Assembly: GCA_021647705.1 (NCBI GenBank)
Contig: JAKIUF010000002.1
Coordinates: forward strand, 137,295 to 201,294
Origin: Gammaproteobacteria bacterium
Lineage (GTDB): Bacteria; Pseudomonadota; Gammaproteobacteria; SZUA-152
Direction: 5' to 3'
DNA length: 64,000 bases
Shown: piece by piece, positions 2,190 through 64,000 of the stretch
How positions within the stretch are numbered: the first letter of the stretch is position 1
Layout: each line of letters begins with the position of its first letter
Notes under the pieces: model-generated
The model's input: only the letters and a program-made list of their open reading frames with translations
What the model was told of the DNA's origin: nothing
Database searches by the model: none
Translations under genes and position numbers: made by a program

Positions 2190-4198
2190 GTGTACGCCCA
2201 GCATGGGCATGAACTCAATATAGAAATAGAAAAGAAGACACCCAGTGCGCCGAGATAAATCGGTAGTTAATCAATTGGTGAAAGCCCAATACACAGTAAG
2301 AGCTAGCCACTCGCTGTGGCCCCGAGTCATGAGCTGTTATCGAAAGAGACACAGTTAAGCGTTGACAGGGGAACGTACAGGCTCAGTATTGAGCTCCGAA
2401 ATCACATTGAGAACGTTGACCTTGTTGGGTGAAGGGGAAGACCCTATTGATAACCTCGAAAATGGCAAGAGGTTGTCAAGCTCTCCGGAGTCATAGACCT
2501 GGTGCATGTACGAATGTTAACTACGCGGAACTCGGGAGCCCCTGTGTTTGATCAGCGCCAATCCAACCTCTAGTAGGAGGCAATGGTCGGGTTGAGGAAA
2601 TAAACCAAATAATCTCAACATCAACAAACACAGGGAGTCGGACAAAACCATAGTAGTGAAGAAGCAGGCGAACAAAGAGAGCAAGAGGAAAAAAAATGAC
2701 ATATTTCAATCCCCTTTGCCATCAGCGGAGTCAGTGGAGCGAAGGGTTTTGGCTAAGAGAAAGTTTGAGTAAACCCACCGAGACCTTGACGCAGAGCAAG
2801 GAAGAAACAGGCAGGGCACTGCACAGACTACATGAAGTCGCTAAACGAGATTCCCATCTCACATTCAACAACCTGCTACACCATCTGAGTATAGAAAAGC
2901 TCACACGAGCCTACTATGCGCTCAATCGAAAAGCAGCAAAAGGTGTTGATGAGCAAAGCTGGGACGACTATGGAGAAAACCTCCAGGAAAAGGTCAGCGC
3001 ATTACACACAAAACTGCATACCCAACGTTATCAACCACAACCCACAAAACGAGTCTGGATACCCAAAGCGAGCGGTCAACTAAGACCGATAGGCATCACT
3101 GCCATCGAGGATAAAGTGGTGCAGCAAGCCTTAGTCTGGGTGATGGAGTCGATATACGAAGCAGACTTTCTGGGTTTCAGCTACGGCTTCAGGCCAAATC
3201 GAAACCCACATCAGGCGCTGGACGTTGTCTACATTGCATTGACGGAAAAGAAAGTAAGCTGGGTGCTGGATGCCGACATACAAGGATTCTTCGATCACAT
3301 AGATCATGGCTGGATGATGAAATTCATTGAGCATCGGATCAGTGATAAAAGAATACTGGGACTACTGAAAAAGATACTAAAAGCAGGTGTGATAGAAGAA
3401 GGGAAATGGTCAAAGACGCGGATTGGAACCCCGCAAGGAGCTGTTATATCACCGCTACTAGCGAATATATACCTGCACTACGTCCTAGACCTATGGGCAC
3501 ATCAGTGGCGAAGAAAATACGCGCGAGGTGAAGTCTACATCGTACGATACGCCGACGATTTTGTACTGGGTTTCCAGTACAGAATAGACGGTGAACATTT
3601 TCACCAAGCCCTGATAGAAAGACTGAAATGCTTTGGACTGACATTGCACCCAGAGAAAACACGACTCATTGAATTTGGTCGGTTCGCTGAAAGCAATAGA
3701 AGAGAAAGAGGAGCGGGTAAGCCGGAAACATTTGATTTTCTAGGCTTCACGCACCTGTGCAGCAACAAGCGAAACAATAAAGGATTTAGCGTGCGCCGAC
3801 AGACCATCAGCAAAAGGCTGAGAGCCACGGTAAAAAGGATCAAAGAACAGCTGAAAAGAAACAACATGTTCAATGTTCACCGGCAGGGACGCTGGCTTCG
3901 CAAGGTGATGCAAGGTTTGATTAACTATTATGGCGTACCGGGAAACAGCACCGCGTTGGCAAGGCTGCGAACGGAAATGTGTTGTAACTGGCGAAAGTCA
4001 TTAAGGCGTCGAGGAAACAAAAGGCCGATAAACTGGCTGCAAATGACGAAGTTAATCAACCGCTGGATACCCAAAGTCAGCGTGGTTCACCCATACCCGA
4101 ATCAGCGGCGTTGTGTTTGACTCGAAGCAGGAGCCGGATGCGTTAGTAGCGCAAGTCCGGATCTGCGCCGGAGGCCTGACAAATGAGAACTGTAATGA
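2190..4198 (+). mobile_element. Group II intron (bacterial class C-like; reverse transcriptase without an En domain); boundaries approximate
   Basis: 5' GTGTACGCCCAGCATGGGCATG resembles the Ll.LtrB 5' end GTGCGCCCAGATAGGGTG (an alternative 5' end is GTGCG at 2245); ORF in domain IV; domain V-like GAGCCGGATGCG..CGCAAGTCCGGATC with AGC triad and 2-nt bulge at 4128-4165; sits right after a hairpin. Confidence 0.7.
2696..4120 (+). CDS. ltrA: Group II intron reverse transcriptase/maturase (intron-encoded protein)
   Basis: RT motifs (RPIGITAIEDKVVQQA, FDHIDH, YADDFVLG, TQGAVISPLLANIYL) and X/maturase domain; no C-terminal HNH/En domain. Confidence 0.9.
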   Translation: MTYFNPLCHQRSQWSEGFWLRESLSKPTETLTQSKEETGRALHRLHEVAKRDSHLTFNNLLHHLSIEKLTRAYYALNRKAAKGVDEQSWDDYGENLQEKVSALHTKLHTQRYQPQPTKRVWIPKASGQLRPIGITAIEDKVVQQALVWVMESIYEADFLGFSYGFRPNRNPHQALDVVYIALTEKKVSWVLDADIQGFFDHIDHGWMMKFIEHRISDKRILGLLKKILKAGVIEEGKWSKTRIGTPQGAVISPLLANIYLHYVLDLWAHQWRRKYARGEVYIVRYADDFVLGFQYRIDGEHFHQALIERLKCFGLTLHPEKTRLIEFGRFAESNRRERGAGKPETFDFLGFTHLCSNKRNNKGFSVRRQTISKRLRATVKRIKEQLKRNNMFNVHRQGRWLRKVMQGLINYYGVPGNSTALARLRTEMCCNWRKSLRRRGNKRPINWLQMTKLINRWIPKVSVVHPYPNQRRCV

Positions 4199-18153: not shown

Positions 18154-19347
18154 TCAAATGTGATGTTGTTTGGCAATGATGTTGATTAGTTGTCGTCCAA
18201 GCACAAATTTTGATGCCGTCGTTAATTGCTGTTTGTTTTCCGTAGTAAGAATCAGTAGCGCATTCTCATCCGCCTCAAAGGCAATGCCTTCTCCCACCCA
18301 ATTTGCGGCAATCATATCAACCCCTTTTCGTTCCAGTTTTTCCCGTGCGTGTTGTTCGAGATCTTCTGTTTCGGCGGCGAAACCAACAGTAAAGGGAGCA
18401 TTTTTTAATGCAGCGACAGTGGCAAGGATGTCGGGGTTACGTTGTAGTTCCAGAGTGAGAGTATCTCCGGTTTTTTTGATTTTTTGTTCGGCAATATTGA
18501 TCGGGCGATAATCGGCGACAGCAGCGGTACTGATAAAAATGTCACTGTTGGTGACGTGTTGCATAACGGCATCAAACATTTGTTGTGCGCTGCGCACGTC
18601 GATACGTTCAACGCGCGGTGGTGTGGCAAGTGCAGTGGGGCCGCTGATCAAAATGACTTTTGCGCCTGCTTCGGCGGCGGCCTGGGCGATGGCGTAGCCC
18701 ATTTTCCCGGAGCTGCGGTTGCTGAGGTAGCGCACGGGGTCGATAGCCTCTTGCGTGGGACCGGCAATAAGTAGTACTGTGCTTCCAGACAGCAATCCGG
18801 TTTCAAAAATGTCGGCGGTGTGTGTCGCAAGCTGGTTTGCTTCCAGCATGCGGCCAGGGCCGGTTTCGCCACAGGCCTGGTCGCCTTCGCCGGGGCCGAA
18901 TTGCAATATGCCACGCTGCCGAAGTTGTTGCAGGTTTTCCTGGGTGGCGGCATTGGCCCACATTTGCTGATTCATGGCCGGGGCGATGGCAATGGTGGAA
19001 TCTGTGGCCAGACAAATGGCTCCCAGCAGGTCGTCTGCACGACCTTGCGCGAGTCGGGCGATAAAATTGGCGCTGGCAGGCGCAACAAGAACAGCATCAG
19101 CCCAGCGCGCCAGTGCGATATGGCCCATGGCGGCTTCGGCTTCTGTGTCCAGCAGATTTGTATGTACGGGGTTTCCCGACAATGCCTGAAAGGTCAGCGG
19201 AGTGACGAATTCGGCTCCGCCTTTGGTGAGTACCACGCGCACGTCAGCTCCGGCATCTTTGAGGCGTCGTACCAGTTCGGCAGATTTGTAGGCGGCAATG
19301 GAGCCGCTGACACCGAGCAGGATATGTTTATTGTTAAGGCTGATCAT
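18154..19347 (-). CDS. coaBC: Bifunctional phosphopantothenoylcysteine decarboxylase/synthetase
   Basis: N-terminal flavoprotein domain (ILLGVSGSIAAYK) and C-terminal DFP/CoaB domain. Confidence 0.9.
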   Translation of the reverse strand: MISLNNKHILLGVSGSIAAYKSAELVRRLKDAGADVRVVLTKGGAEFVTPLTFQALSGNPVHTNLLDTEAEAAMGHIALARWADAVLVAPASANFIARLAQGRADDLLGAICLATDSTIAIAPAMNQQMWANAATQENLQQLRQRGILQFGPGEGDQACGETGPGRMLEANQLATHTADIFETGLLSGSTVLLIAGPTQEAIDPVRYLSNRSSGKMGYAIAQAAAEAGAKVILISGPTALATPPRVERIDVRSAQQMFDAVMQHVTNSDIFISTAAVADYRPINIAEQKIKKTGDTLTLELQRNPDILATVAALKNAPFTVGFAAETEDLEQHAREKLERKGVDMIAANWVGEGIAFEADENALLILTTENKQQLTTASKFVLGRQLINIIAKQHHI

Positions 19348-46529: not shown

Positions 46530-46596
46530 TCAGCGGTCTTTATTGGTCCCGCAATTTTCCTGATTGCGGGCAAGATGTTAGAATTTCCCACGTTTG

Positions 46597-46672
<76 letters not shown>

Positions 46673-46755
46673 TATAAACAATGAATTTCTTTGAGTACAT
46701 GAGGGCGCGCCAAACCAGCTTCTCGTCACGTACATTTTGAATTTCTGCGTAATTA

Positions 46756-46784
46756 TTGACAGCTAAAAACATTGGGCGTAAAGT
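46756..46784 (+). promoter_or_regulatory. Sigma-70-like promoter (TTGACA-17-TAAAGT) upstream of leader peptide and rtcB
   Basis: Near-consensus -35 with 17-bp spacer and TAAAGT -10 just downstream of tRNA-Ile2. Confidence 0.45.
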
Positions 46785-46826
46785 CCCGCCCACTATTTTC
46801 AATTCTAACTAAACAGGAGGTCATTA

Positions 46827-46877
46827 ATGTTAAAAACCCCAACATTCAAGAGCCTCGTGCCCTTTACCGCCCGGTAA
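46827..46877 (+). CDS. Putative 16-aa leader peptide MLKTPTFKSLVPFTAR with strong SD, followed by a hairpin
   Basis: AGGAGG 7 nt upstream of ATG; hairpin CCGGCCAGTACAGGCCGG at 46885-46902 then T-rich run. Confidence 0.3.
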   Translation: MLKTPTFKSLVPFTAR

Positions 46878-47006
46878 ATTTATCCGGCCAGTACAGGCCG
46901 GGCTCCTACAAAATAACAGTTTTTTAATTTTGTCGGCACTTGTCGATGCGTTGGATTATTACGTCCAGCGTAATTGTTCAACTGTGTCGCGCTGTAGGAG
47001 AAATGC

Positions 47007-47369
47007 GTGAAAATTAATAACAAATGGCTGGATGAGGTGGCATGTCTGTGTGCTGAACCGGGTCCAGAGGATGGTATAGATCCCCGTTACTTGAGTAGTG
47101 TTCAAGGGCGAATAGTGGATCACCAAAAATCATCAAGGTTATGCAATGAAATTGTAAAGGTGTTGTCGTTGGTGTTGGCAGGAGAAATGAGTAACCCGGT
47201 GTTACAAGCGCTGCTGGTTGTTGATGTTACTACAGAAGGTAATGGACAGTATTTACGTGTCAGCCTGGGGTGTCTGGAAGAAGGCGTGGAGATTGATGAA
47301 ATCCCAGGTATTAGCCGCGCTGATACAAGTTCAGGGTTATCTACGCTCAGTCATCGCACAACATATTAA
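47007..47369 (+). CDS. Hypothetical protein upstream of rtcB
   Basis: 120 aa, no recognisable motif; co-directional and adjacent to rtcB. Confidence 0.4.
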   Translation: MKINNKWLDEVACLCAEPGPEDGIDPRYLSSVQGRIVDHQKSSRLCNEIVKVLSLVLAGEMSNPVLQALLVVDVTTEGNGQYLRVSLGCLEEGVEIDEIPGISRADTSSGLSTLSHRTTY

Positions 47370-47433
47370 TCGTAAACATGTTCCGGCATTAAGGTTTCAT
47401 TATGTCGGATTAATTGAGCTAGGATGAATCGTT

Positions 47434-48631
47434 ATGCCTATTCAAAAAATAATCAGCAAGGGCAAAGTGCCGGTGAAGATCTATACCGATGAGGTGGAGG
47501 TAGCGGCGATGCAACAGCTCTATAACATGGCACAGTTACCCTTTATTCATAGTCATTTGGCGGTGATGCCAGATGTACATATGGGGAAAGGGGCGACTGT
47601 CGGATCAGTAATTCCGACTAAAGGCGCGATTATTCCGGCCGCTGTAGGCGTGGATATTGGTTGTGGTATGAATGCTGTTCGCTTGTCTATCAAAGCAAAT
47701 GATTTGCCGGATAATTTGCGTGCAATTCGTTCGACGATTGAAGAGGCGATACCCGTTGGTTATAACATGCATAAACATGATCGTGCCAGGGAATCGACGA
47801 TCCGTGCATTGTCCAGCGGATTGGACAGTATTTTAAGAAAGCATAAAAAAATCTATTCGATGCAGAAAAAACCCTATCAAACATGGATAAGGCAAATAGG
47901 AACATTGGGAGGAGGCAACCATTTTATTGAATTATGTCTGGATGAAAATCAGGATGTTTGGATTATGTTGCATTCGGGGAGTCGAGGTATCGGTAATGTC
48001 ATTGGTCAGTATTTCATTGCTTTGGCGAAAAAAGATATGGGTCAATATATTGTGAATTTGCCGGATAAAGATTTGGCTTATTTTACCCAGGGAGCCAGGC
48101 ATTTTGCTGATTATGTGGAAGCGGTTGAGTGGGGACAGGACTATGGCCATGGCCAATCGTCGTGAAATGATGCATTTCATTATCGAAGCTTTGCGGAAAA
48201 AACTGCGCAAGTTTGGTGTTACCAAAGAAGCGATTAATTGCCATCATAATTACGTGTCAAGAGAGTTTCATTTTGGTGAAGATATTTTTGTGACACGTAA
48301 AGGAGCGATTAGCGCAAGGGAAGGTGAGTTGGGAATTATCCCAGGAAGCATGGGCGCCAAATCATTTATTGTGAAGGGTAAGGGTAATCCGCAGTCATTT
48401 TGTTCTTGCGCACATGGTGCGGGGAGAAAAATGAGCCGTGCAGCGGCAAAGCGTCAATTCAGTGAGAGTGATGTGAACTTGCAAACAGAGGGCGTTGAAT
48501 GTCGGAAAGATAAAGGAATTATTGATGAGATTCCGGCTGCCTATAAAGACATCGATCAAGTGATGAAGCATCAAAGTGATCTGGTGGATATTGTGCATAC
48601 CCTTAAACAAATTGTCTGTGTGAAGGGTTAA
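47434..48631 (+). pseudogene. rtcB: RNA-splicing ligase RtcB, interrupted by a frameshift near 48104-48165
   Basis: N-terminal ORF (GVDIGCGM, GGGNHFIE, HSGSRGIGN) and C-terminal ORF (HNY, IPGSMG, SCAHGAGR) overlap out of frame at GGCCATGGCC. Confidence 0.6.
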
Positions 48632-48660
48632 AAAATATTTATAAAACAAAGGAGGAAATA

Positions 48661-48864
48661 ATGACAAGGCCAAGAGACTGGGTTGCCCGTTCGCCGTTGA
48701 TGCGTAAAGGCGGAGCCCATGTTAAATCGAAAACCGGGAAGCGTATGCGTGCTAGGCTTGATTTGGATGATGCTCTTTGTGAATGGTATGAAGAGGACAA
48801 ATTAGATATAAACGAAAAGGGGAGCCATCGGCTCCCCGTAGTTTATACGCTAGCCTCATTGTAG
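48661..48864 (+). CDS. Hypothetical small basic protein
   Basis: 67 aa, SD-like aaaggaggaaataATG. Confidence 0.35.
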   Translation: MTRPRDWVARSPLMRKGGAHVKSKTGKRMRARLDLDDALCEWYEEDKLDINEKGSHRLPVVYTLASL

Positions 48865-49289
48865 AATGTGAGATTATATTTCATTGATGGATGTTGATGA
48901 TTAAAAAAACAAAAAAATATCATTCTAATAAAAGTTTAATGTAAAGAAATATAAAGTTACAAAATAGGATGAATCACCTAAATTTATAGGTATTGTTATT
49001 TTTTAGATTAATGTGCAGAAATAATAATTGATATTTAATGTAAATATTTTATTGCAATTAAAAGTTTGTTAACTATAATGTCGCCAACATGAAAACTTTA
49101 GCCACAAATCAATCACCCTCCATCATCGCCCACAGGGCTATGCTGTTTTGTGGGTTGGGTAATAATTTGCAAATGAGCGGTATGATTTTAGATATAAACG
49201 GTAATTATAAAGAAACAATACTGATAAATAATACATTGACGTAATTAGTCTGCCACTTAGTGGAAGGCTAAAGCCTTCCCGGAAAAGAT

Positions 49290-49325
49290 AATTAAACCCT
49301 GGAAGGAAACGACCAGGGTTTTTTA
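49290..49325 (+). terminator. Rho-independent terminator-like hairpin
   Basis: CCCTGGAAGGAAACGACCAGGG plus T6. Confidence 0.55.
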
Positions 49326-49562
49326 TTGGGTACGATTTGAGAAAGTTGAAATAAATGAAACAGATAAAACAAATATTTAATACTGAGTCACGACTTATGA
49401 GACTTGCTCCATTTGACGAGATTCATTTTCCATCACGATTGGTAGAACCCATGAATGTACATTTATGTGCTTATTTTTTGGGTGACGCCATGAACTGACC
49501 TTCTGCCTATTAATTGCTTGCGGAAGGAGATAAAGAAAGCCTTCCGCGGGCAAGGTGTAAAA

Positions 49563-49610
49563 GCCCCGGAAGCCATCGAAAGATGTTGTTTACCGGGGTT
49601 TTTTTATGCC
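49563..49610 (+). terminator. Rho-independent terminator-like hairpin
   Basis: CCCCGGAAGCCATCGAAAGATGTTGTTTACCGGGG plus T7. Confidence 0.5.
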
Positions 49611-49848
49611 TCCAGCAACCCACAACGCGGTTAGCTGTGATCTTTAACAATTTGGGAATGTAACTGATTGCTGGATTTATCCAGTGTAAGGGTGAGCTTT
49701 GTCTGAAGGTTTTTGTTGTCAGGAAAGTTGTGCGGCGGATAGTTAACCCGCTGTATTGCTGGCTCGTTCAGCCACCCGTTTTTGTTAGGGGTATCGCTCA
49801 ATCAATGTAATGGTTGAGTGTTATTGATTTATCGGTAAAAAAATATAT

Positions 49849-49924
49849 TGGCAAGTGCGCTACCCGGTAGGCGGTCTCACTGTTAATGAGGTGTATGCCG
49901 GTTCGAGTCCGGCCTTGCCAGCCA
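49849..49924 (+). tRNA. tRNA-Asn(GUU)
   Basis: Hand-folded cloverleaf: acceptor TGGCAAG/CTTGCCA, anticodon arm TCTCA-CTGTTAA-TGAGG, T arm GCCGG-TTCGAGT-CCGGC, ends GCCA. Confidence 0.65.
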
Positions 49925-49953
49925 ATTAACTGTCTGAAAAGGAGGTATAGAAA

Positions 49954-50142
49954 ATGAAGGTGATGAAGCTAGAGAGACGATTTGAATCATTAATCGCGAC
50001 GATGAATGTACCTCAAACCCGAAAGAAAGGAACTGCAATTAATGCATTGTGGTTTTTAAGGGATGGGGCAATTGCTAACAGAACACATAAAAATGTTCAT
50101 GAAGCCAGTGAGATTGCGGTGAAATTAGCTAACGCTCATTAA
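49954..50142 (+). CDS. Hypothetical 62-aa protein inside the tRNA array (strong SD)
   Basis: AAAGGAGG 8 nt upstream of ATG. Confidence 0.4.
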   Translation: MKVMKLERRFESLIATMNVPQTRKKGTAINALWFLRDGAIANRTHKNVHEASEIAVKLANAH

Positions 50143-50169
50143 CGAAGAATGAATTTATTAAGCAGTATA

Positions 50170-50242
50170 TGCACCTGTAGCTGAGTCGGAATAGCGCGAC
50201 ACTGAAAATGTCGAAACGGTCGTTCAATTTGTCCCAGGTGCA
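50170..50242 (+). tRNA. tRNA-Phe(GAA)-like, probably degenerate (imperfect T-stem, no encoded CCA)
   Basis: Perfect acceptor GCACCTG/CAGGTGC, D arm, anticodon arm CGACA-CTGAAAA-TGTCG; T-arm pairs poorly. Confidence 0.4.
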
Positions 50243-50250
50243 TCAGATAT

Positions 50251-50327
50251 GGCCCGTTAGCATAGTGGTTGGATGCAAACGATTGTCAGGCGTGAGATCG
50301 CGGATTTAAATTCCGCACGGGCCGCCA
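50251..50327 (+). tRNA. tRNA-Asp(GUC)-like, degenerate (weak anticodon stem, T-loop TTTAAAT)
   Basis: Perfect acceptor GGCCCGT/ACGGGCC plus GCCA, D arm GCAT/ATGC, loop TTGTCAG gives anticodon GTC. Confidence 0.35.
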
Positions 50328-50586
50328 GTAGCGCCGCAGGTAATGACAGTAAACAACTTGTGAGCACGGCTGAAATATAGCCAAGGTGTGAACCAGAGGA
50401 CTTGGCCATTTGTTAATCCTCAGTTGGTTGTTTAACCAAAAAGTAGGTATGGCGCAGTTATTGATGAAATGGGGCGACCATTACTTGCGGTTTTTTTTAA
50501 AGTCACATTCGCTAAGCTGGCAGGGTTCTCAATCAATAATCGAGGGATCCCTGGTTGAGGCTTAGGATGTGGCACCAATGATTAAT

Positions 50587-50663
50587 GGTGAAAGTAGCTT
50601 AATGGGTAAAGCTTCTGATTGTGAATCAGATAGATGCCGGATCATCCCCGGTCTTTCACCCCA
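50587..50663 (+). tRNA. tRNA-His(GUG) with G-1, C73 and encoded CCA
   Basis: G-1 + GTGAAAG/CTTTCAC acceptor, anticodon arm TCTGA-TTGTGAA-TCAGA, C73, CCA; T-loop ATCATCC is non-canonical. Confidence 0.6.
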
Positions 50664-50696
50664 TTATTATTTAAATAATAAAAGGGAAAAGAAATT

Positions 50697-50772
50697 GGGT
50701 TGCTAGCTCAACTGGCAGAGCAATCGCCTTTTAAGCGATAGGTTCGGGGATCGTTCTCCCGGCAGCCCACCA
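50697..50772 (+). tRNA. tRNA-Lys(UUU)
   Basis: Acceptor GGGTTGC/GCAGCCC, D arm GCTC-AACTGGCA-GAGC, anticodon arm ATCGC-CTTTTAA-GCGAT, ACCA end; T-loop ATCGTTC unusual. Confidence 0.6.
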
Positions 50773-50927
50773 AACATCACATGTTACATCATTGTAATGT
50801 GATAACAGCGTTGAAACAGCACTGCATTGTTCAGCGGTTCAGGTTCTGTATGCCTGGCCTGCGCACCAACACTTAGCGAAAGCAATCGTACGGTGTGTAC
50901 AGATCAATTGTGGTGATTTCGACATCC

Positions 50928-51001
50928 ACCAGGATAGCTCAGTTGGGTAGAGCAACTGATTTTTAATCAGTTTGTCGCAGGTTCGATTCCTGCTCCAGGC
51001 A
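50928..51001 (+). tRNA. tRNA-Lys(UUU)-like with two acceptor-stem mismatches (possible pseudogene or att remnant)
   Basis: D arm GCTC-AGTTGGGTA-GAGC, anticodon arm ACTGA-TTTTTAA-TCAGT, canonical T arm GCAGG-TTCGATT-CCTGC; acceptor ACCAGGA/TCCAGGC mismatched; no CCA. Confidence 0.35.
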
Positions 51002-58915: not shown

Positions 58916-59849
58916 CTATCCGGACAAAACCGCACCCAATGGACTCACCACCGCATTTCCGCCCCGGTTCAGTACATGGGTATAGATTTGAGTGGTACGC
59001 ACATCTTTATGCCCCAACTGTTCCTGCACCGTTCGGATATCCATGCCCCGCTCCAGCAAATGCGTGGCAAAAGAATGACGCAACGTATGACAACTGGCGG
59101 GCTTGTGAATCCCCGCCTTGCGAATCGCCTTCTCATCAAAATGATGCCGCCGTTCCACGCCCGAACGAGGATCAATACTGCCACGCCCATTCCGTTGGCG
59201 CATTGGGATATTTTCGTGCCAGAGCATGGGGAAGGTAAACACTGCCAAAACCATCTGCCAAATCTTTATCGTGCGTTTGTCGTCGATTTTCCAGGTGTCG
59301 TTGCAAAGGCACAATCAACTCATCTGACAGCGTCACTACCCGGTCTTTCCCTCCTTTAGCGTTATGCACATAAATCGCACAGCGCAAAAAATCAAGATTC
59401 ATCACCCGCAAGCGTAAACATTCCATCAATCGCAAACCGGAACCGTACATCAAACAGGCCGCAAGCCAATAAAGACCATCCAGCCCTTGTAGAACCGCTT
59501 GTACCTCTTCACGCGTCAACACCACCGGAATCTTTTGCCGTGTTTTGGCGCGCGCCACCCCTTTCAAGCCCTCAATGGGCTGGTCCAACACCACGCGATA
59601 AAGAAACATCAAGGCATTAAAAGCCTGATTCTGTGTACTGGGGGCAACATTTCGATCTACCGCCAAATGCGTCAAAAATGCTGTTACTTCCCGTGCCCCC
59701 ATTTCACGAGGATGCTGTTTGTTATGGAAATAGATAAACCGCTTCACCCAGCCGCTATCAGCTTTTTCGGTTTTCCGGCTGTAATGACGCACACGAATTG
59801 CATCCGAAATCGAACACAGGAAAGGCGAAGAATAATTTGTCGAATCCAT
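58916..59849 (-). pseudogene. intI: Integron integrase intI with apparent frameshift near 59175-59200
   Basis: N-terminal 225-aa ORF (..[17 protein letters not shown]) and overlapping C-terminal ORF (..[50 protein letters not shown]) in different frames; IntI-specific extra domain present. Confidence 0.8.
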
Positions 59850-60320: not shown

Positions 60321-60826
60321 ATGATAGGAAGCTGGGAGATGTCATCGCTATCAGAACCCAAGCGATACTTTGAGTACTCAAAGGCATATATCCAAGCGAG
60401 CCTCGATATATGTAACAGCATGATAAGTGACAAAAATCGAGAAACATGGCCTAATGCTAATGTTGCATTAATGCTGGCAGCACATTCCGTCGAGCTATTT
60501 CTTAAAGGAGCAATACTCTTAAAGTCAAATAAAGCATGGGGGCACACACTTGAAAATTTAAATTCAACATATCATGATATTTATACTGAAAAAAACTTCA
60601 GTTTAACTGCCCTTTTAGAACCGAATATATAGAAATATCAGAAGAAGAGCAAAGGACTTTAAGAAAGAAAGAGCCTCAACAAAGCATACTTTTCCGCTAT
60701 CCTGTAAAAAAACCGGGAGTTGAATGGAATGGAGTATTTGGGTTTGAACCAAATGATTTTATCGATATTCTCAATGATTTAAATGCTAATTATAATAAGT
60801 TGATTTATAAACATGAAAATAATTAA
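60321..60826 (+). CDS. Hypothetical cassette protein; apparent frameshift near 60615-60632 splits it into two frames
   Basis: ORF 60321..60632 continues in another frame to 60826; 3' end overlaps the protease gene start. Confidence 0.4.
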
Positions 60827-61757
60827 AAATATATTACTAGTCATATTGCCCTTAATACAATCACATGTATATGCACTAGACTCAGGAGAAATATATAAGA
60901 AAAGCATTGAATCTGTGGTTACAGTAGTATCCTTAGATAAAGACAACAAAATATTAATGACAGGAACGGGCTTCTTTGCAAAACATAAAAACCTAATCGC
61001 AACAAATTACCATGTCATTAAAAACACGCACCATCTAAAAATAATAACCTCAGATGATAAGGAGCATAATATTTTTGATATATGCGTTGAAAACGCATCA
61101 AATGACATCGCAATATTACGATCAATTCCTGAAAGACAGCCTTTATCTTTAAATAAAAACACACCAAGTATTGGTGATAAAATTATTTCCATTGGTAGCC
61201 CAATGGGATTATCAGGCAGCTTATCAACTGGCGTTATTGGTGCCATTAGAAAGAATGAAGGGCATAAATATTATCAAATAACATCACCGATATCGCCAGG
61301 CAGTAGTGGTGGCCCTGTTATTGATGAGAACGGACTCGTTCTTGGTATGACAACATTTTATATTAAAGGCGCTCAAAATTTAAATTTTGCAATACCATCC
61401 CCACGAATTTCAACTTATCTAAATACAAGCATGGAATGTTTAAAGAAAAGCAATACGCAGCCTGACACTGCATTGATAAATAAATATTCAGAATCTCTCT
61501 ACGAAAATTACTTAAAAAATAAAGACAGCTACCCTTCAGAAAGGCAAAATATAAAACCTGACGCATACCAATGTATCGCGCAACTCATCAGTGATTTTGG
61601 TACCAAAGAAGAAATTATCGCTCTAAACAATATGTTTATTAATAAGAGTAAATCATTAGATGTCCAGCTATCTCCATATAGAAAAAACATACTCAAATCA
61701 TTAATTAATAACTCAAGTAATAATGAGTGTCTTGCAACAAAAAAATCTAACAATTAG
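60813..61757 (+). CDS. Secreted trypsin-like (S1/DegP-core) serine protease with about 120-aa C-terminal extension of unknown function
   Basis: Signal peptide; catalytic His (TNYHVI), Asp (NDIAIL), Ser (SPGSSGGPV); no PDZ domain. Confidence 0.7.
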   Translation: MKIIKNILLVILPLIQSHVYALDSGEIYKKSIESVVTVVSLDKDNKILMTGTGFFAKHKNLIATNYHVIKNTHHLKIITSDDKEHNIFDICVENASNDIAILRSIPERQPLSLNKNTPSIGDKIISIGSPMGLSGSLSTGVIGAIRKNEGHKYYQITSPISPGSSGGPVIDENGLVLGMTTFYIKGAQNLNFAIPSPRISTYLNTSMECLKKSNTQPDTALINKYSESLYENYLKNKDSYPSERQNIKPDAYQCIAQLISDFGTKEEIIALNNMFINKSKSLDVQLSPYRKNILKSLINNSSNNECLATKKSNN

Positions 61758-62515: not shown

Positions 62516-62724
62516 ATATGATAAATAAATATCGTGTGCATCTTGAAACAATAGACCCAGATAATGAAGAGCAGGATATTCATTATTCAACATTGGTTGA
62601 AGCCACAAACGAAAACGAGGCCATTGAAATAGCAAAAGATAGACAAGGAGAAGAAAGTCCAGAATTGCCTCGTAGTAAAACATGGGCTTGGCATGCTTAC
62701 AAAACAAATGAAGCCATTGATTAG
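62516..62724 (+). CDS. Hypothetical small acidic cassette protein (69 aa)
   Basis: SD aaaggaaATGaatATG; the longer listed ORF from 62458 begins inside attC2, so the downstream ATG is preferred. Confidence 0.45.
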
Positions 62725-62741
62725 TTATATAAATAAAAGCA

Positions 62742-62775
62742 GGCATCGAATGATTGATGCCTGCTTTTAAAAAGT
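62742..62775. terminator. Bidirectional hairpin terminator between the convergent small ORF and the symE-like gene
   Basis: AAAAGCAGGCATC gaatgatt GATGCCTGCTTTT perfect 13-bp stem with A and T runs. Confidence 0.65.
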
Positions 62776-62778
62776 AAG

Positions 62779-63039
62779 TTATTGTGGAGTGATGATTAAT
62801 CGATTTTGAGTAACTTGTACACAAATAGGAAGCCCAATAACAAAGCCAGATTCTTCAAGCCATGTTCCTTTGAGTAAAATAAAAGGAGTTTTAGGGTTGC
62901 CTTTATGAGGCGCGGATTTTAAGCAATAGTCACGATGCCCTTCTCGAACTATAATATGACGTTTATTCATGATTATTTCCTTGTGCAAATGGTTAAAAAC
63001 CACCACCGCCAAGGTACGAATCTTAGGGTGGTGGGCCAT
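62779..63039 (-). CDS. symE: SymE-family type I toxin-like protein (SOS-induced toxin family)
   Basis: ..RDYCLKSAPHKGNPKTPFILLKGTWLEESGFVIGLPICVQVTQNRLIITPQ resembles the E. coli SymE core [42 protein letters not shown]. Confidence 0.55.
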   Translation of the reverse strand: MAHHPKIRTLAVVVFNHLHKEIIMNKRHIIVREGHRDYCLKSAPHKGNPKTPFILLKGTWLEESGFVIGLPICVQVTQNRLIITPQ

Positions 63040-63260
63040 ATGAGGTTCGTACTACCGCGCACAAGGAACGGCCACCCGAAGGTGCCCCATACAGCCCACC
63101 GTAAAAGGGGGCAAGCCACAAAAAAAGACGCTGGCTACAATGTAGGCGTCTTTCAGGTGGCACCTTGTGTCTTGCGGGGTACGAATCCCGGCCTGATTTA
63201 CATCAAGCAAATCAACTGTAATTTAATGAGTTGGCTCTGTCAACATCGTGCCAAAATATG

Positions 63261-63351
63261 GCATAACACGGCGCTCCACCTGACTGCCAAAAGCTGCGCT
63301 GCTCGTACCTCGCTCTGCAACTTTTGGCAGCCAGTGAGCTAGGAGTTATGC
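63261..63351 (+). other. Integron attC site 3 (91 bp): R'' GCATAAC ... R' GTTATGC
   Basis: R'' is the exact reverse complement of attC2 R'; internal inverted repeat CTGACTGCCAAAAGCTGCG / CTGCAACTTTTGGCAGCCAG. Confidence 0.65.
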
Positions 63352-63375: not shown

Positions 63376-63645
63376 ATGGTTAATTTTGTAAAATTATGGA
63401 ATAGCCACCCAACCGTAGAATCATTTATAGATGATTTCCCATGTAAGAAAAATGGCAAGAAGGCATTTGACAATCAGTGTGCAATTCGCATTGGAGTGGC
63501 ATTCGAAAAAACTGGTGTCAACCTTAAGTCATTCAAAGGTGCCAAATGTTGGCATAGTCATAAGCCAGCACATATTTTGCGCGCAGAAGAAATAGAAAAT
63601 TGGCTAAAAGGTCCATTTTCGCCTTTTAAAAACATAACAGAATAA
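63376..63645 (+). CDS. Tae4-like amidase effector N-terminal fragment, truncated by IS insertion
   Basis: NQCAIRIGVAFEKTG resembles the Tae4 catalytic-Cys region NACPIRMSYVLNATG; 89 aa against about 160 for full Tae4; the stop codon is supplied by the IS terminus. Confidence 0.4.
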   Translation: MVNFVKLWNSHPTVESFIDDFPCKKNGKKAFDNQCAIRIGVAFEKTGVNLKSFKGAKCWHSHKPAHILRAEEIENWLKGPFSPFKNITE

Positions 63646-64000
63646 AATAGGACACCCATCAATTAATTGACACTCTGGTCGATCCTCGTTAGATTGCAAG
63701 GCGTACAATTCACATGAAGGAGGCACGGATGCCAAAACCCCGCAAAAATCAGGTCTGCCTGGATTCAACCCCTTATTACCATTGCATCTCGCGCTGTGTA
63801 CGTCGTGCCTTTCTCTGTGGCAAAGACGAGTTCTCCGGCCAAAACTACGAACACCGGAAACAATGGGTTGTCGATAAACTCGCTGAATTAACCCGTGTTT
63901 TTTCTATCGACGTTTGTGCCTACGCTGTCATGAGTAATCATTACCATTTAGTCCTGCACATCAATCAGCCTCAAGCTTTGGCATGGTCTGATGATGAAGT
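63644..64000 (+). mobile_element. Second copy of the IS200/IS605-like element, inverted relative to copy 1, continuing beyond the window
   Basis: 63652-63728 is the reverse complement of 5481-5549; transposase ORF from 63729 almost identical to 4435..5481. Confidence 0.7.
63729..64000 (+). CDS. tnpA: HUH (Y1) transposase, partial (runs off the window)
   Basis: MPKPRKNQVCLDSTPYYHCISRCVRRAFLCGKDEFSGQNYEHRKQWVVDKLAEL.. near-identical to the copy-1 transposase. Confidence 0.7.
   Translation, partial: MPKPRKNQVCLDSTPYYHCISRCVRRAFLCGKDEFSGQNYEHRKQWVVDKLAELTRVFSIDVCAYAVMSNHYHLVLHINQPQALAWSDDE

Follow-up and report, generated by a model that had tools for sequence, protein, structure and literature searches.

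We describe a gene for a short SymE-like protein and the RNA leader in front of it, which lie together in a cassette of a gammaproteobacterial integron. The stretch of DNA analysed, 64,000 nucleotides (nt) long, is called the window. The features of the module, in the order in which they would be transcribed, are as follows.

63215-63243, minus strand: sigma-70-like promoter, TTGACA (63243-63238), a 17-nt spacer and TACAGT (63220-63215), with 10 of 12 matches
63121-63208, minus strand: isrK-like or a1b1 element, Rfam RF01394, 38.3 bits, E 6e-6
63185-63179, minus strand: site a1, UUCGUAC, in a hairpin loop
63169-63163, minus strand: site b1, CACAAGG, single-stranded
63152-63146 with 63131-63125, minus strand: stem of the intrinsic terminator of the isrK-like element, with a U7 run at 63126-63120
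63024-63106, minus strand: C4 antisense RNA, Rfam RF01695 (clan CL00128), 59.1 bits against a gathering score of 45, E 4.5e-10, full length 1-87
63068-63059, minus strand: site b', UUCCUUGUGC, in the loop of hairpin 2
63052-63046, minus strand: site a', GUACGAA, in the 3' junction
63000-63034, minus strand: post-C4 hairpin, CCACCACC (63034-63027) paired with GGUGGUGG (63007-63000)
63020-63014, minus strand: site a2, UUCGUAC, in the loop of the post-C4 hairpin
62977-62986, minus strand: site b2, GCACAAGGAA, which ends 6 nt before the symE ATG
62779-62970, minus strand: symE-like coding sequence with its stop codon, 63 amino acids (aa), ATG at 62970

A first-pass annotation made from the letters of the window had called the gene a SymE-like toxin, and alignment to PF08845 (SymE_toxin) upholds the membership at the domain level, with 45 bits against a gathering score of 29 (E 1.2e-11, profile positions 9-54 of 54). 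The domain is present in all homologues found, and the identical protein (P0001) of a gammaproteobacterial metagenome-assembled genome (MAG) at NCBI is annotated as a SymE family toxin. The start at 62970 has the Shine-Dalgarno (SD) sequence AAGGAA 6 nt upstream, within b2. A longer reading of 86 aa from the ATG at 63039 was rejected because its N-terminal extension is not conserved. The 23 added codons run into in-frame stops within 1-12 codons in 9 of 17 other loci and are unconserved as protein in the rest.

The AlphaFold 2 monomer of the 63-aa protein, a predicted structure with a pLDDT of 74.4, weakly resembles the swapped-hairpin fold of the AbrB/MazE type. The top Foldseek folds in the PDB, MazE (1mvf_D, 2mru) and the AbrB N-domain (1yfb), are non-significant (E 0.5-1, TM 0.43-0.58), and a sequence search of the PDB with the protein gave zero matches.

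Relatives were collected by protein identity look-up and genome scan, and all counts are of distinct loci. The RNA partners were called with Rfam models, and SymR was searched in the C4-type loci other than the window at E cut-offs of 0.01-0.1. The Xanthomonas symE locus, which the profile searches did not reach, stands outside this panel. The loci fall out as follows.

Short SymE (63-66 aa), 12 distinct loci including the window: C4 and isrK upstream on the symE strand, no SymR-like match
Short SymE (63-66 aa), 11 distinct loci: sRNA-Xcc1 (RF02221, 49-72 bits) upstream on the symE strand, no SymR-like match
Longer SymE, loci L038, L043, L044 and L047: no upstream same-strand RNA, a SymR-like antisense match of 31-52 bits over the start codon

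A same-strand RNA, either C4 with isrK or sRNA-Xcc1, lies upstream of the gene in 23 of the 23 distinct short-SymE loci. The SymE family splits cleanly by RNA partner, one part being of SymR type and the other of C4/Xcc1 type. The SymR-like matches of the four longer loci, which include plasmids of Pantoea dispersa (L043) and Lonsdalea populi (L044), are below the RF01809 gathering score of 61. Among the Xcc1-type loci are those of Alcanivorax sp. ALC70 (L034), of Alloalcanivorax gelatiniphagus (L036, with two copies) and of Alkalilimnicola ehrlichii. Toxin cassettes of this kind are common in marine sulfur-oxidising symbionts. The short-SymE loci have attC sites on either side and no phage genes nearby. 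A tblastn search with the short SymE returned only distant long-type SymE of Pantoea and Lonsdalea plasmids and weak Lachnospiraceae phage matches.

Two of the long-type loci also hold weak isrA (RF01385) matches of 30-36 bits, below threshold, at L043 11-121 and L044 1195-1298 (minus). They are antisense within the symE coding regions and come besides the SymR-like matches at the starts.

The upstream flank at 63040-63160 had been described as GC-rich and structured, perhaps encoding a regulatory RNA. Both points are borne out, with 56% GC against 38% for the cassette array, and Rfam places C4 and isrK there on the symE strand. The hairpin singled out in that description does exist, with an A7 run on the plus strand. 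It is followed by U7 on the minus strand and so is the minus-strand intrinsic terminator of the isrK-like element, not a plus-strand element. The predicted transcription start at about 63208 coincides with the 5' end of the isrK-like element, and TTGACA-N17-TAnAGT is kept in all 12 C4-type leaders.

The C4 element folds into a 16-bp closing stem and a UUCG-capped hairpin 1, with a fold z of -2.6, and its structure is 99.7% paired over the 12 leaders. The UUCG tetraloop on hairpin 1 is a feature of most C4 RNAs according to the Weinberg 2010 supplement. The 5' UAUGG and 3' GCCACC ends are kept across the leaders, and by analogy with the annotated ends of the P1 RNA the mature C4-class RNA is predicted to span about 63096-63027. 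The post-C4 hairpin, which through its 5' strand shares sequence with the foot of the C4 closing stem, is 95.8% paired with 3 compensatory pairs. The models c4-a1b1 (RF03163) and sRNA-Xcc1 (RF02221) have no match in the window.

The C4 element is complementary to two sites downstream of it. The b' loop forms 10 contiguous Watson-Crick pairs with b2, which contains the symE SD, and a' forms 7 contiguous pairs with a2. In alignment A2 of the 12 C4-type leaders, the a'/b' against a2/b2 pairing holds in 96.6% of cells and 6 of the 17 pairs are changed on both sides. The covariation score is reached by 0 of 500 shuffles. Sliding the partner by 1-3 columns lowers the pairing to 29-48%. Across loci, the b'-b2 helix by itself shows 94% pairing and 3 compensatory pairs. 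The upstream sites co-vary too, since a1/b1 against a'/b' is paired in 98.8% of cells with 5 compensatory pairs.

The changes come in matched sets. The core of site a has three alleles, CGU/ACG, GGA/UCC and GAG/CUC, each changed consistently in all three places, and site b has three alleles, CACAAGG, ACACAAGG and UACGAGG, with matching b'. The a and b alleles are found in five combinations, hence the two sites have reassorted. When the targets were randomly assigned to the RNAs, 0 of 100000 permutations matched the observed fit. The site-a duplexes have energies of -8.4 to -9.1 kcal/mol in the cognate classes and +0.3 to -4.9 kcal/mol in the non-cognate ones. These C4-type tests used in-register pair counts and site-restricted duplexes; the wide-window RNAduplex energies were set aside as uninformative, their windows having taken in the C4 stem strands.

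The Xcc1-type leaders have different sequences but the same logic of a1b1, then b'a', then a2b2 with the SD. In L024, for example, these are a1 CUUAGAAAC, b1 CCAAAAGG, b' CCUUUUGC, a' GUUUCUAA, a2 CUUAGAAAU and b2 GCAAAAGGAG. The cognate duplexes of this type average -20.4 kcal/mol against -12.7 for the non-cognate ones, and 1 of 100000 permutations was as good as observed. In the Xcc1-type leaders with an intact upstream part, the -35 element is TTGAC followed by A or T and the -10 element is variable, being TATGCT in L024, L025, L027 and L031 and TACACT in L034.

Three copies depart from this pattern. In L032 and L040, both of Xcc1 type, and in copy a of L036, neither an a1b1 segment nor a promoter could be recognised ahead of sRNA-Xcc1. 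Moreover, L032 and L036a fit their own SD more poorly than that of the sister copy. These may be decaying or trans-dependent copies.

Because the a and b sites change together with their RNA, each cassette has its own specificity, as in P1/P7 heteroimmunity. The MAG JBNKMF01 carries three C4-symE cassettes, L020 (GGA/CACAAGG), L010, equal to L022 (CGU/CACAAGG), and L026 (GGA/UACGAGG), and any two of them differ in at least one site. The three combinations are consistent with selection for copies that do not cross-react.

Altogether, it is likely that the C4-class RNA controls symE through pairing with its Shine-Dalgarno sequence. The cassette would be a self-contained toxin module read on the minus strand, in which one promoter would drive the isrK-like leader with a1, b1 and the terminator, then the C4-class RNA with b' and a', then a2, b2 and the SymE-domain protein. 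The C4-class RNA would pair through a'-a2 and b'-b2, and since b2 holds the symE SD, the b' pairing would keep ribosomes off and hold symE translation down. By analogy with P1, the RNA probably acts after excision from the read-through transcript, but it could act while attached.

The a1b1 segment would be an alternative partner for a'b'. Its own strong terminator would yield it as a short RNA that outnumbers the read-through product. Most likely it serves as a decoy, or anti-antisense, that frees the SD and sets a threshold for toxin release; this role is the least certain step of the scheme.

The c4 RNA blocks translation at the ribosome-binding site (RBS) of its target (PMC12197685; also the Weinberg 2010 supplement), and in the same supplement the P1 a1b1 is proposed to compete with a2b2 and so to free the RBS. 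In Gifsy-1, the read-through mRNA is silent until short IsrK activates it in trans, and downstream of IsrK in Salmonella lies an RNA that is processed and stable (PMC4825925). The sRNA-Xcc1 is a discrete 88-nt RNA on Northern blots in Xanthomonas, with its ends mapped (PMC2996969).

Several points weigh against this reading. The host is known only as a MAG and the module from sequence alone. The C4 RNA and its target share one promoter, so repression would need a difference in stability or stoichiometry between them. In the minimum-free-energy fold of the whole leader, a1b1 and a'b' pair with each other in cis. This would expose the SD, and the module could then be ON by default. Relatedness among the loci was only partly controlled in the shuffle tests, and the independent events come to about 5 allele combinations in the C4 type and at least 6 in the Xcc1 type.

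The protein adds to these points. The SymE equivalog model NF010128 gives it 24.6 bits against a cut-off of 132, with an alignment that covers only residues 27-63 (model positions 36-72 of 113), and its toxicity is predicted from family membership only. The isrK match of the window, too, is below the Rfam gathering score. As a control, the same Rfam models were run on the annotated immI region of phage P1 and gave 68.8 bits for C4, 51 for c4-a1b1 and 35.1 for isrK. The true P1 a1b1 region itself scores 35.1 with RF01394, so the sub-threshold score of the window is typical of a genuine a1b1 leader.

An alternative is transcriptional control like that of P4 CI, where C4 pairing with a1b1 and a2 would set termination or read-through instead of blocking the ribosome. 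Two terminator-like hairpins do lie between the promoter and symE, the isrK terminator and the post-C4 hairpin, and the latter is followed by U5 in the window and carries a2 in its loop. The P4 CI RNA, cited as structurally related, works by premature termination through seqA/seqC according to PMC4825925, and a possible cis-regulatory terminator role is raised in the Weinberg 2010 supplement. However, the U-run after the post-C4 hairpin is not conserved, being missing in L005, L010, L013 and L028. Moreover, b2 always lies over the SD and b'-b2 co-varies, neither of which a purely transcriptional mechanism would need. We regard this alternative as unlikely.

The first-pass annotation had pointed to a SymR-like antisense RNA on the plus strand with a promoter opposite the start region. 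Such an RNA would start just inside symE, overlap the SD and the start codon, and repress in cis. A plus-strand TAGTCA-17-TATAAT at 62927-62955, with 10 of 12 matches, would indeed start a transcript about 8 nt inside symE in the SymR geometry, and the longer SymE relatives carry their SymR-like matches at the start codon. However, the site occurs in 1 of 18 loci (0 of the 17 others), and the promoter scan found 2 such sites where 2.3 are expected in shuffled sequence, so this lone site is unconserved and at the chance level. Even with E<=10 allowed, RF01809 does not match the window. No U-run follows the hairpins of the plus strand, and the minus-strand pairings account for all of the covariation.

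A SymR-like RNA here is therefore unsupported and very improbable. At most, this one cassette could have a private antisense transcript, for which no conserved feature speaks. What stands is the broader idea that an antisense RNA controls the toxin; it probably does so, but the RNA is of another family, on the other strand, and at its own upstream site instead of an overlapping one.

That C4 and isrK are merely a leftover of prophage immunity beside symE is hardly credible, since, although bacterial C4 RNAs are assumed to come from phage integration (Weinberg 2010 supplement) and C4 with isrK also precedes unrelated plasmid open reading frames (ORFs) as in L002, the synteny holds in every one of the attC-flanked, phage-free short-SymE loci and the target sites match the symE SD and co-vary with the RNA.

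A blastn search with the whole module found nothing in phages, and in plasmids the RNA part alone matched, ahead of other ORFs. The modules of isrK and C4 (with c4-a1b1 in addition) at L001 2483-2665, L002 2361-2580 and L003 2362-2582 precede non-symE ORFs in plasmids of Microbulbifer, Vibrio lentus and V. tubiashii, hence the same RNA module carries different payloads. The L002 ORF, of 148 aa, was read by inspection of its translation, no family search being run, and looks KilA-N/antirepressor-like.

The module lies in an integron cassette array, which runs on the plus strand from about 60.3 kb. The features that define this context are as follows.

58916-59849, minus strand: intI, frameshifted, TIGR02249, 286.7 bits
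62431-62502, plus strand: attC-like site, after which the acidic-ORF cassette begins
62518-62724, plus strand: acidic ORF of 68 aa, convergent with symE, no family match
62724-62730, plus strand: R'-like core GTTATAT without an attC stem, the probable left boundary of the symE cassette
62735-62768, strand-neutral: terminator hairpin 3' of symE, a perfect stem of 13-14 bp with an 8-nt loop, common to the convergent acidic ORF
63261-63351, plus strand: attC of 91 nt closing the symE cassette, R'' GCATAAC and R' GTTATGC, folds of -38.8 and -47.6 kcal/mol

The location in a cassette and the inversion had both been proposed, and intI, the attC sites and the plus-strand array agree with them: symE is on the minus strand and so is inverted relative to the array. 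The symE cassette of the window is 621 bp (62725-63345). The attC at 63261-63351 lies, in the module's own orientation, directly upstream of its promoter, and the same GTTATGC-promoter junction is also found in L004, L018 and L020. The left boundary was placed by comparison with loci in which the symE terminator is followed by GGCATAAC or GCCTAAC. A comparable hairpin lies 3' of symE in most of 13 other loci inspected, and the reverse complement of the attC R' core, either of these two sequences, directly follows the symE terminator in about half of the 13. Where an attC core marks the upstream end, as it does in several loci, the promoter has another attC before it. In such loci, the promoter, two RNAs, toxin and terminator, about 0.6 kb together, are a complete cassette by themselves.

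The acidic ORF had been described as convergent with symE across a perfect hairpin that is a bidirectional terminator. The convergence and the perfect hairpin are there, but the terminator scan passes the minus strand only, and the plus-strand side has only four U after the stem. The hairpin was ruled out as an attC by inspection, as it is a perfect stem without R''/R' cores and extrahelical bases. The acidic ORF has no homologue by tblastn in any other fetched locus, the only match being a chance-level one of 16 residues in L034 (E 3.6). With no family match either, it was rejected as a protein antitoxin or partner. Its stop codon overlaps the bare GTTATAT core, so the two appear to be fused cassettes and not a functional pair. 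The simplest reading is that the acidic-ORF cassette lost its attC and fused with the symE cassette.

Other features of the window were noted in passing. The intI is split into two overlapping ORFs, 59172-59849 (TIGR02249 positions 1-216) and 58916-59314 (positions 222-313), and the frameshift makes it either a pseudogene or an assembly error. A plus-strand cassette at 60813-61757 codes for a trypsin-like peptidase of 314 aa (PF13365, 76 bits), whose N-terminus is hydrophobic. The 89-aa cassette ORF at 63376-63645 (plus) matches only the first 54 of 125 positions of the type VI secretion amidase effector Tae4 (PF14113, 35.6 bits); either the effector has been truncated or this is a small domain protein. 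Directly after the array, an ORF at 63720-64000 (plus) runs off the window end with a weak match to the IS200-like Y1 transposase (PF01797, 16.9 bits, below the cut-off). Seven tRNA genes (Met, Asn, Phe, Asp, His, Lys, Lys) lie at 46596-51001 (plus), about 8 kb from intI.

A group II intron domain (RF02005, 163.8 bits) is at 2281-2500 (plus) of the window. Such domains also occur at L013 433-702, L020 312-560, L029 2426-2590, L030 1-182 and L033 964-1033, where they sit within 1-2.5 kb of symE cassettes. Their recurrence may reflect introns that target the attC sites of these arrays.

C4 RNAs have been reported in many proteobacterial genomes, where they are assumed to mark integrated phages (Weinberg 2010 supplement). 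In the literature searched, no paper joins SymE with C4 antisense RNA, and among the listed papers that mention both C4 antisense RNA and antitoxins, none appears from its title and abstract opening to treat C4 as an antitoxin. The putative partnership of C4 and isrK with SymE is new. So are the a1b1, b'a' and a2b2-SD architecture with its three-way covariation in both RNA types, and the division of the SymE family between two types of control. The wider proposal that a widespread family of short SymE toxins, carried on cassettes, has the C4-class RNAs, sRNA-Xcc1 among them, for its RNA antitoxins is tentative, possible but somewhat short of probable.

If this wider proposal is true, a phage immunity circuit with a decoy a1b1, a processed antisense RNA and an SD target would have been taken over as a three-part RNA switch. 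The two-site specificity code would let several orthogonal copies coexist in one integron, and one toxin family would have evolved two unrelated antisense solutions. A phage-type RNA module co-transcribed with its gene would evidently serve to control a toxin on integron cassettes. Large integron arrays are believed to be stabilised by toxin cassettes that bring a promoter of their own. Practically, the a and b alleles, matched as they are, make up a natural collection of orthogonal RNA-RNA pairs. The sRNA-Xcc1 has been treated as a trans-acting virulence RNA, with targets sought among virulence genes and even plant transcripts, and the downstream symE SD would be a concrete testable target for it.

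Among the known systems to compare with the module is SymE/SymR of E. coli. There, SymR is an RNA of the opposite strand that controls SymE. Both systems have a Pfam SymE domain and an antisense RNA aimed at the translation start region. Unlike SymR, the RNA of the window is of another family, on the same strand as the toxin, and upstream instead of overlapping. The window also lacks a symR match, its protein has 63 aa against the 113 positions of the NCBIfam model, and there is no LexA box near the symE promoter, the sole CTGT-N8-ACAG of the window being at 18777 in a search for the consensus core only.

The Xanthomonas cassette has the same design. A preprint on Xanthomonas integrons places sRNA-Xcc1 upstream of symE, both inverted relative to the cassette promoter Pc, among the most widespread cassettes, and comments only that the arrangement suggests 'a divergent regulatory mechanism' (bioRxiv 10.1101/2025.06.18.660453). 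A small RNA upstream of an inverted symE is common to that cassette and the window, and the 11 Xcc1-type loci follow the same logic. However, the RNA of the window is C4 and not sRNA-Xcc1, which Rfam keeps outside the C4 clan and which has been described as an integron-encoded trans-acting RNA under HrpG/HrpX control (PMC2996969).

The P4 CI system, likened from its description and not from sequence, also has a processed leader RNA that pairs with one site upstream and one downstream, but its output is the premature termination of replication genes (PMC4825925). The Gifsy-1 IsrK-STnc1160/orf45-anrP system of Salmonella shares an isrK-like short RNA with its own terminator and a read-through that yields the mRNA. 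There, too, the short RNA has its complement in a structured segment further downstream, and long-range pairing of the leader with that segment is predicted (PMC4825925). It differs in that the target RBS is that of orf45 inside the structured segment, and the control reaches an antirepressor and then the AntQ antiterminator. The C4 segment of the window encloses no conserved ORF, and its target is the toxin's own SD.

The anatomy of the module copies that of immI of P1 and P7, taken here from the annotated GenBank record and secondary sources. The P1 record has promoters P2c4 and P1c4, a1 (TTGACAG, 7 nt), b1 (GTTAGTGC, 8 nt), the C4 RNA of 77 nt, a2 (TTGACAG), b2, icd and ant1/2, and b2 (GTTAGTGA) sits 11-18 nt before icd, the inhibitor of cell division. 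The window has the same order with comparable site sizes: a promoter, an a1-b1 leader of two hairpins, C4, a2, and b2 over the RBS. It also shares the placing of b' in a hairpin loop and of a' in the 3' junction, and a small growth-inhibiting ORF downstream, as the family assignment predicts. In both, the 3' end of the C4 closing stem doubles as the 5' strand of the hairpin that has a2 in its loop, a sharing general to C4 RNAs in the Weinberg 2010 supplement, and the specificity alleles of P1/P7 likewise change in matched sets.

The differences are in the payload and the surroundings. The window carries a SymE-domain protein in place of Icd and Ant, and a homology between P1 Icd and SymE was rejected at an hhalign probability of 0.9%. 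The context is cassette genes and attC sites instead of a prophage, there is no C1 operator, and a U7 intrinsic terminator separates a1b1 from C4. The comparison links two separate paradigms, the P1 c4 immunity RNA and the SymE type I toxin; as its sequence reads, the element in the window is a c4 control module of the P1 type that has a SymE protein as its payload and sits in an integron cassette.

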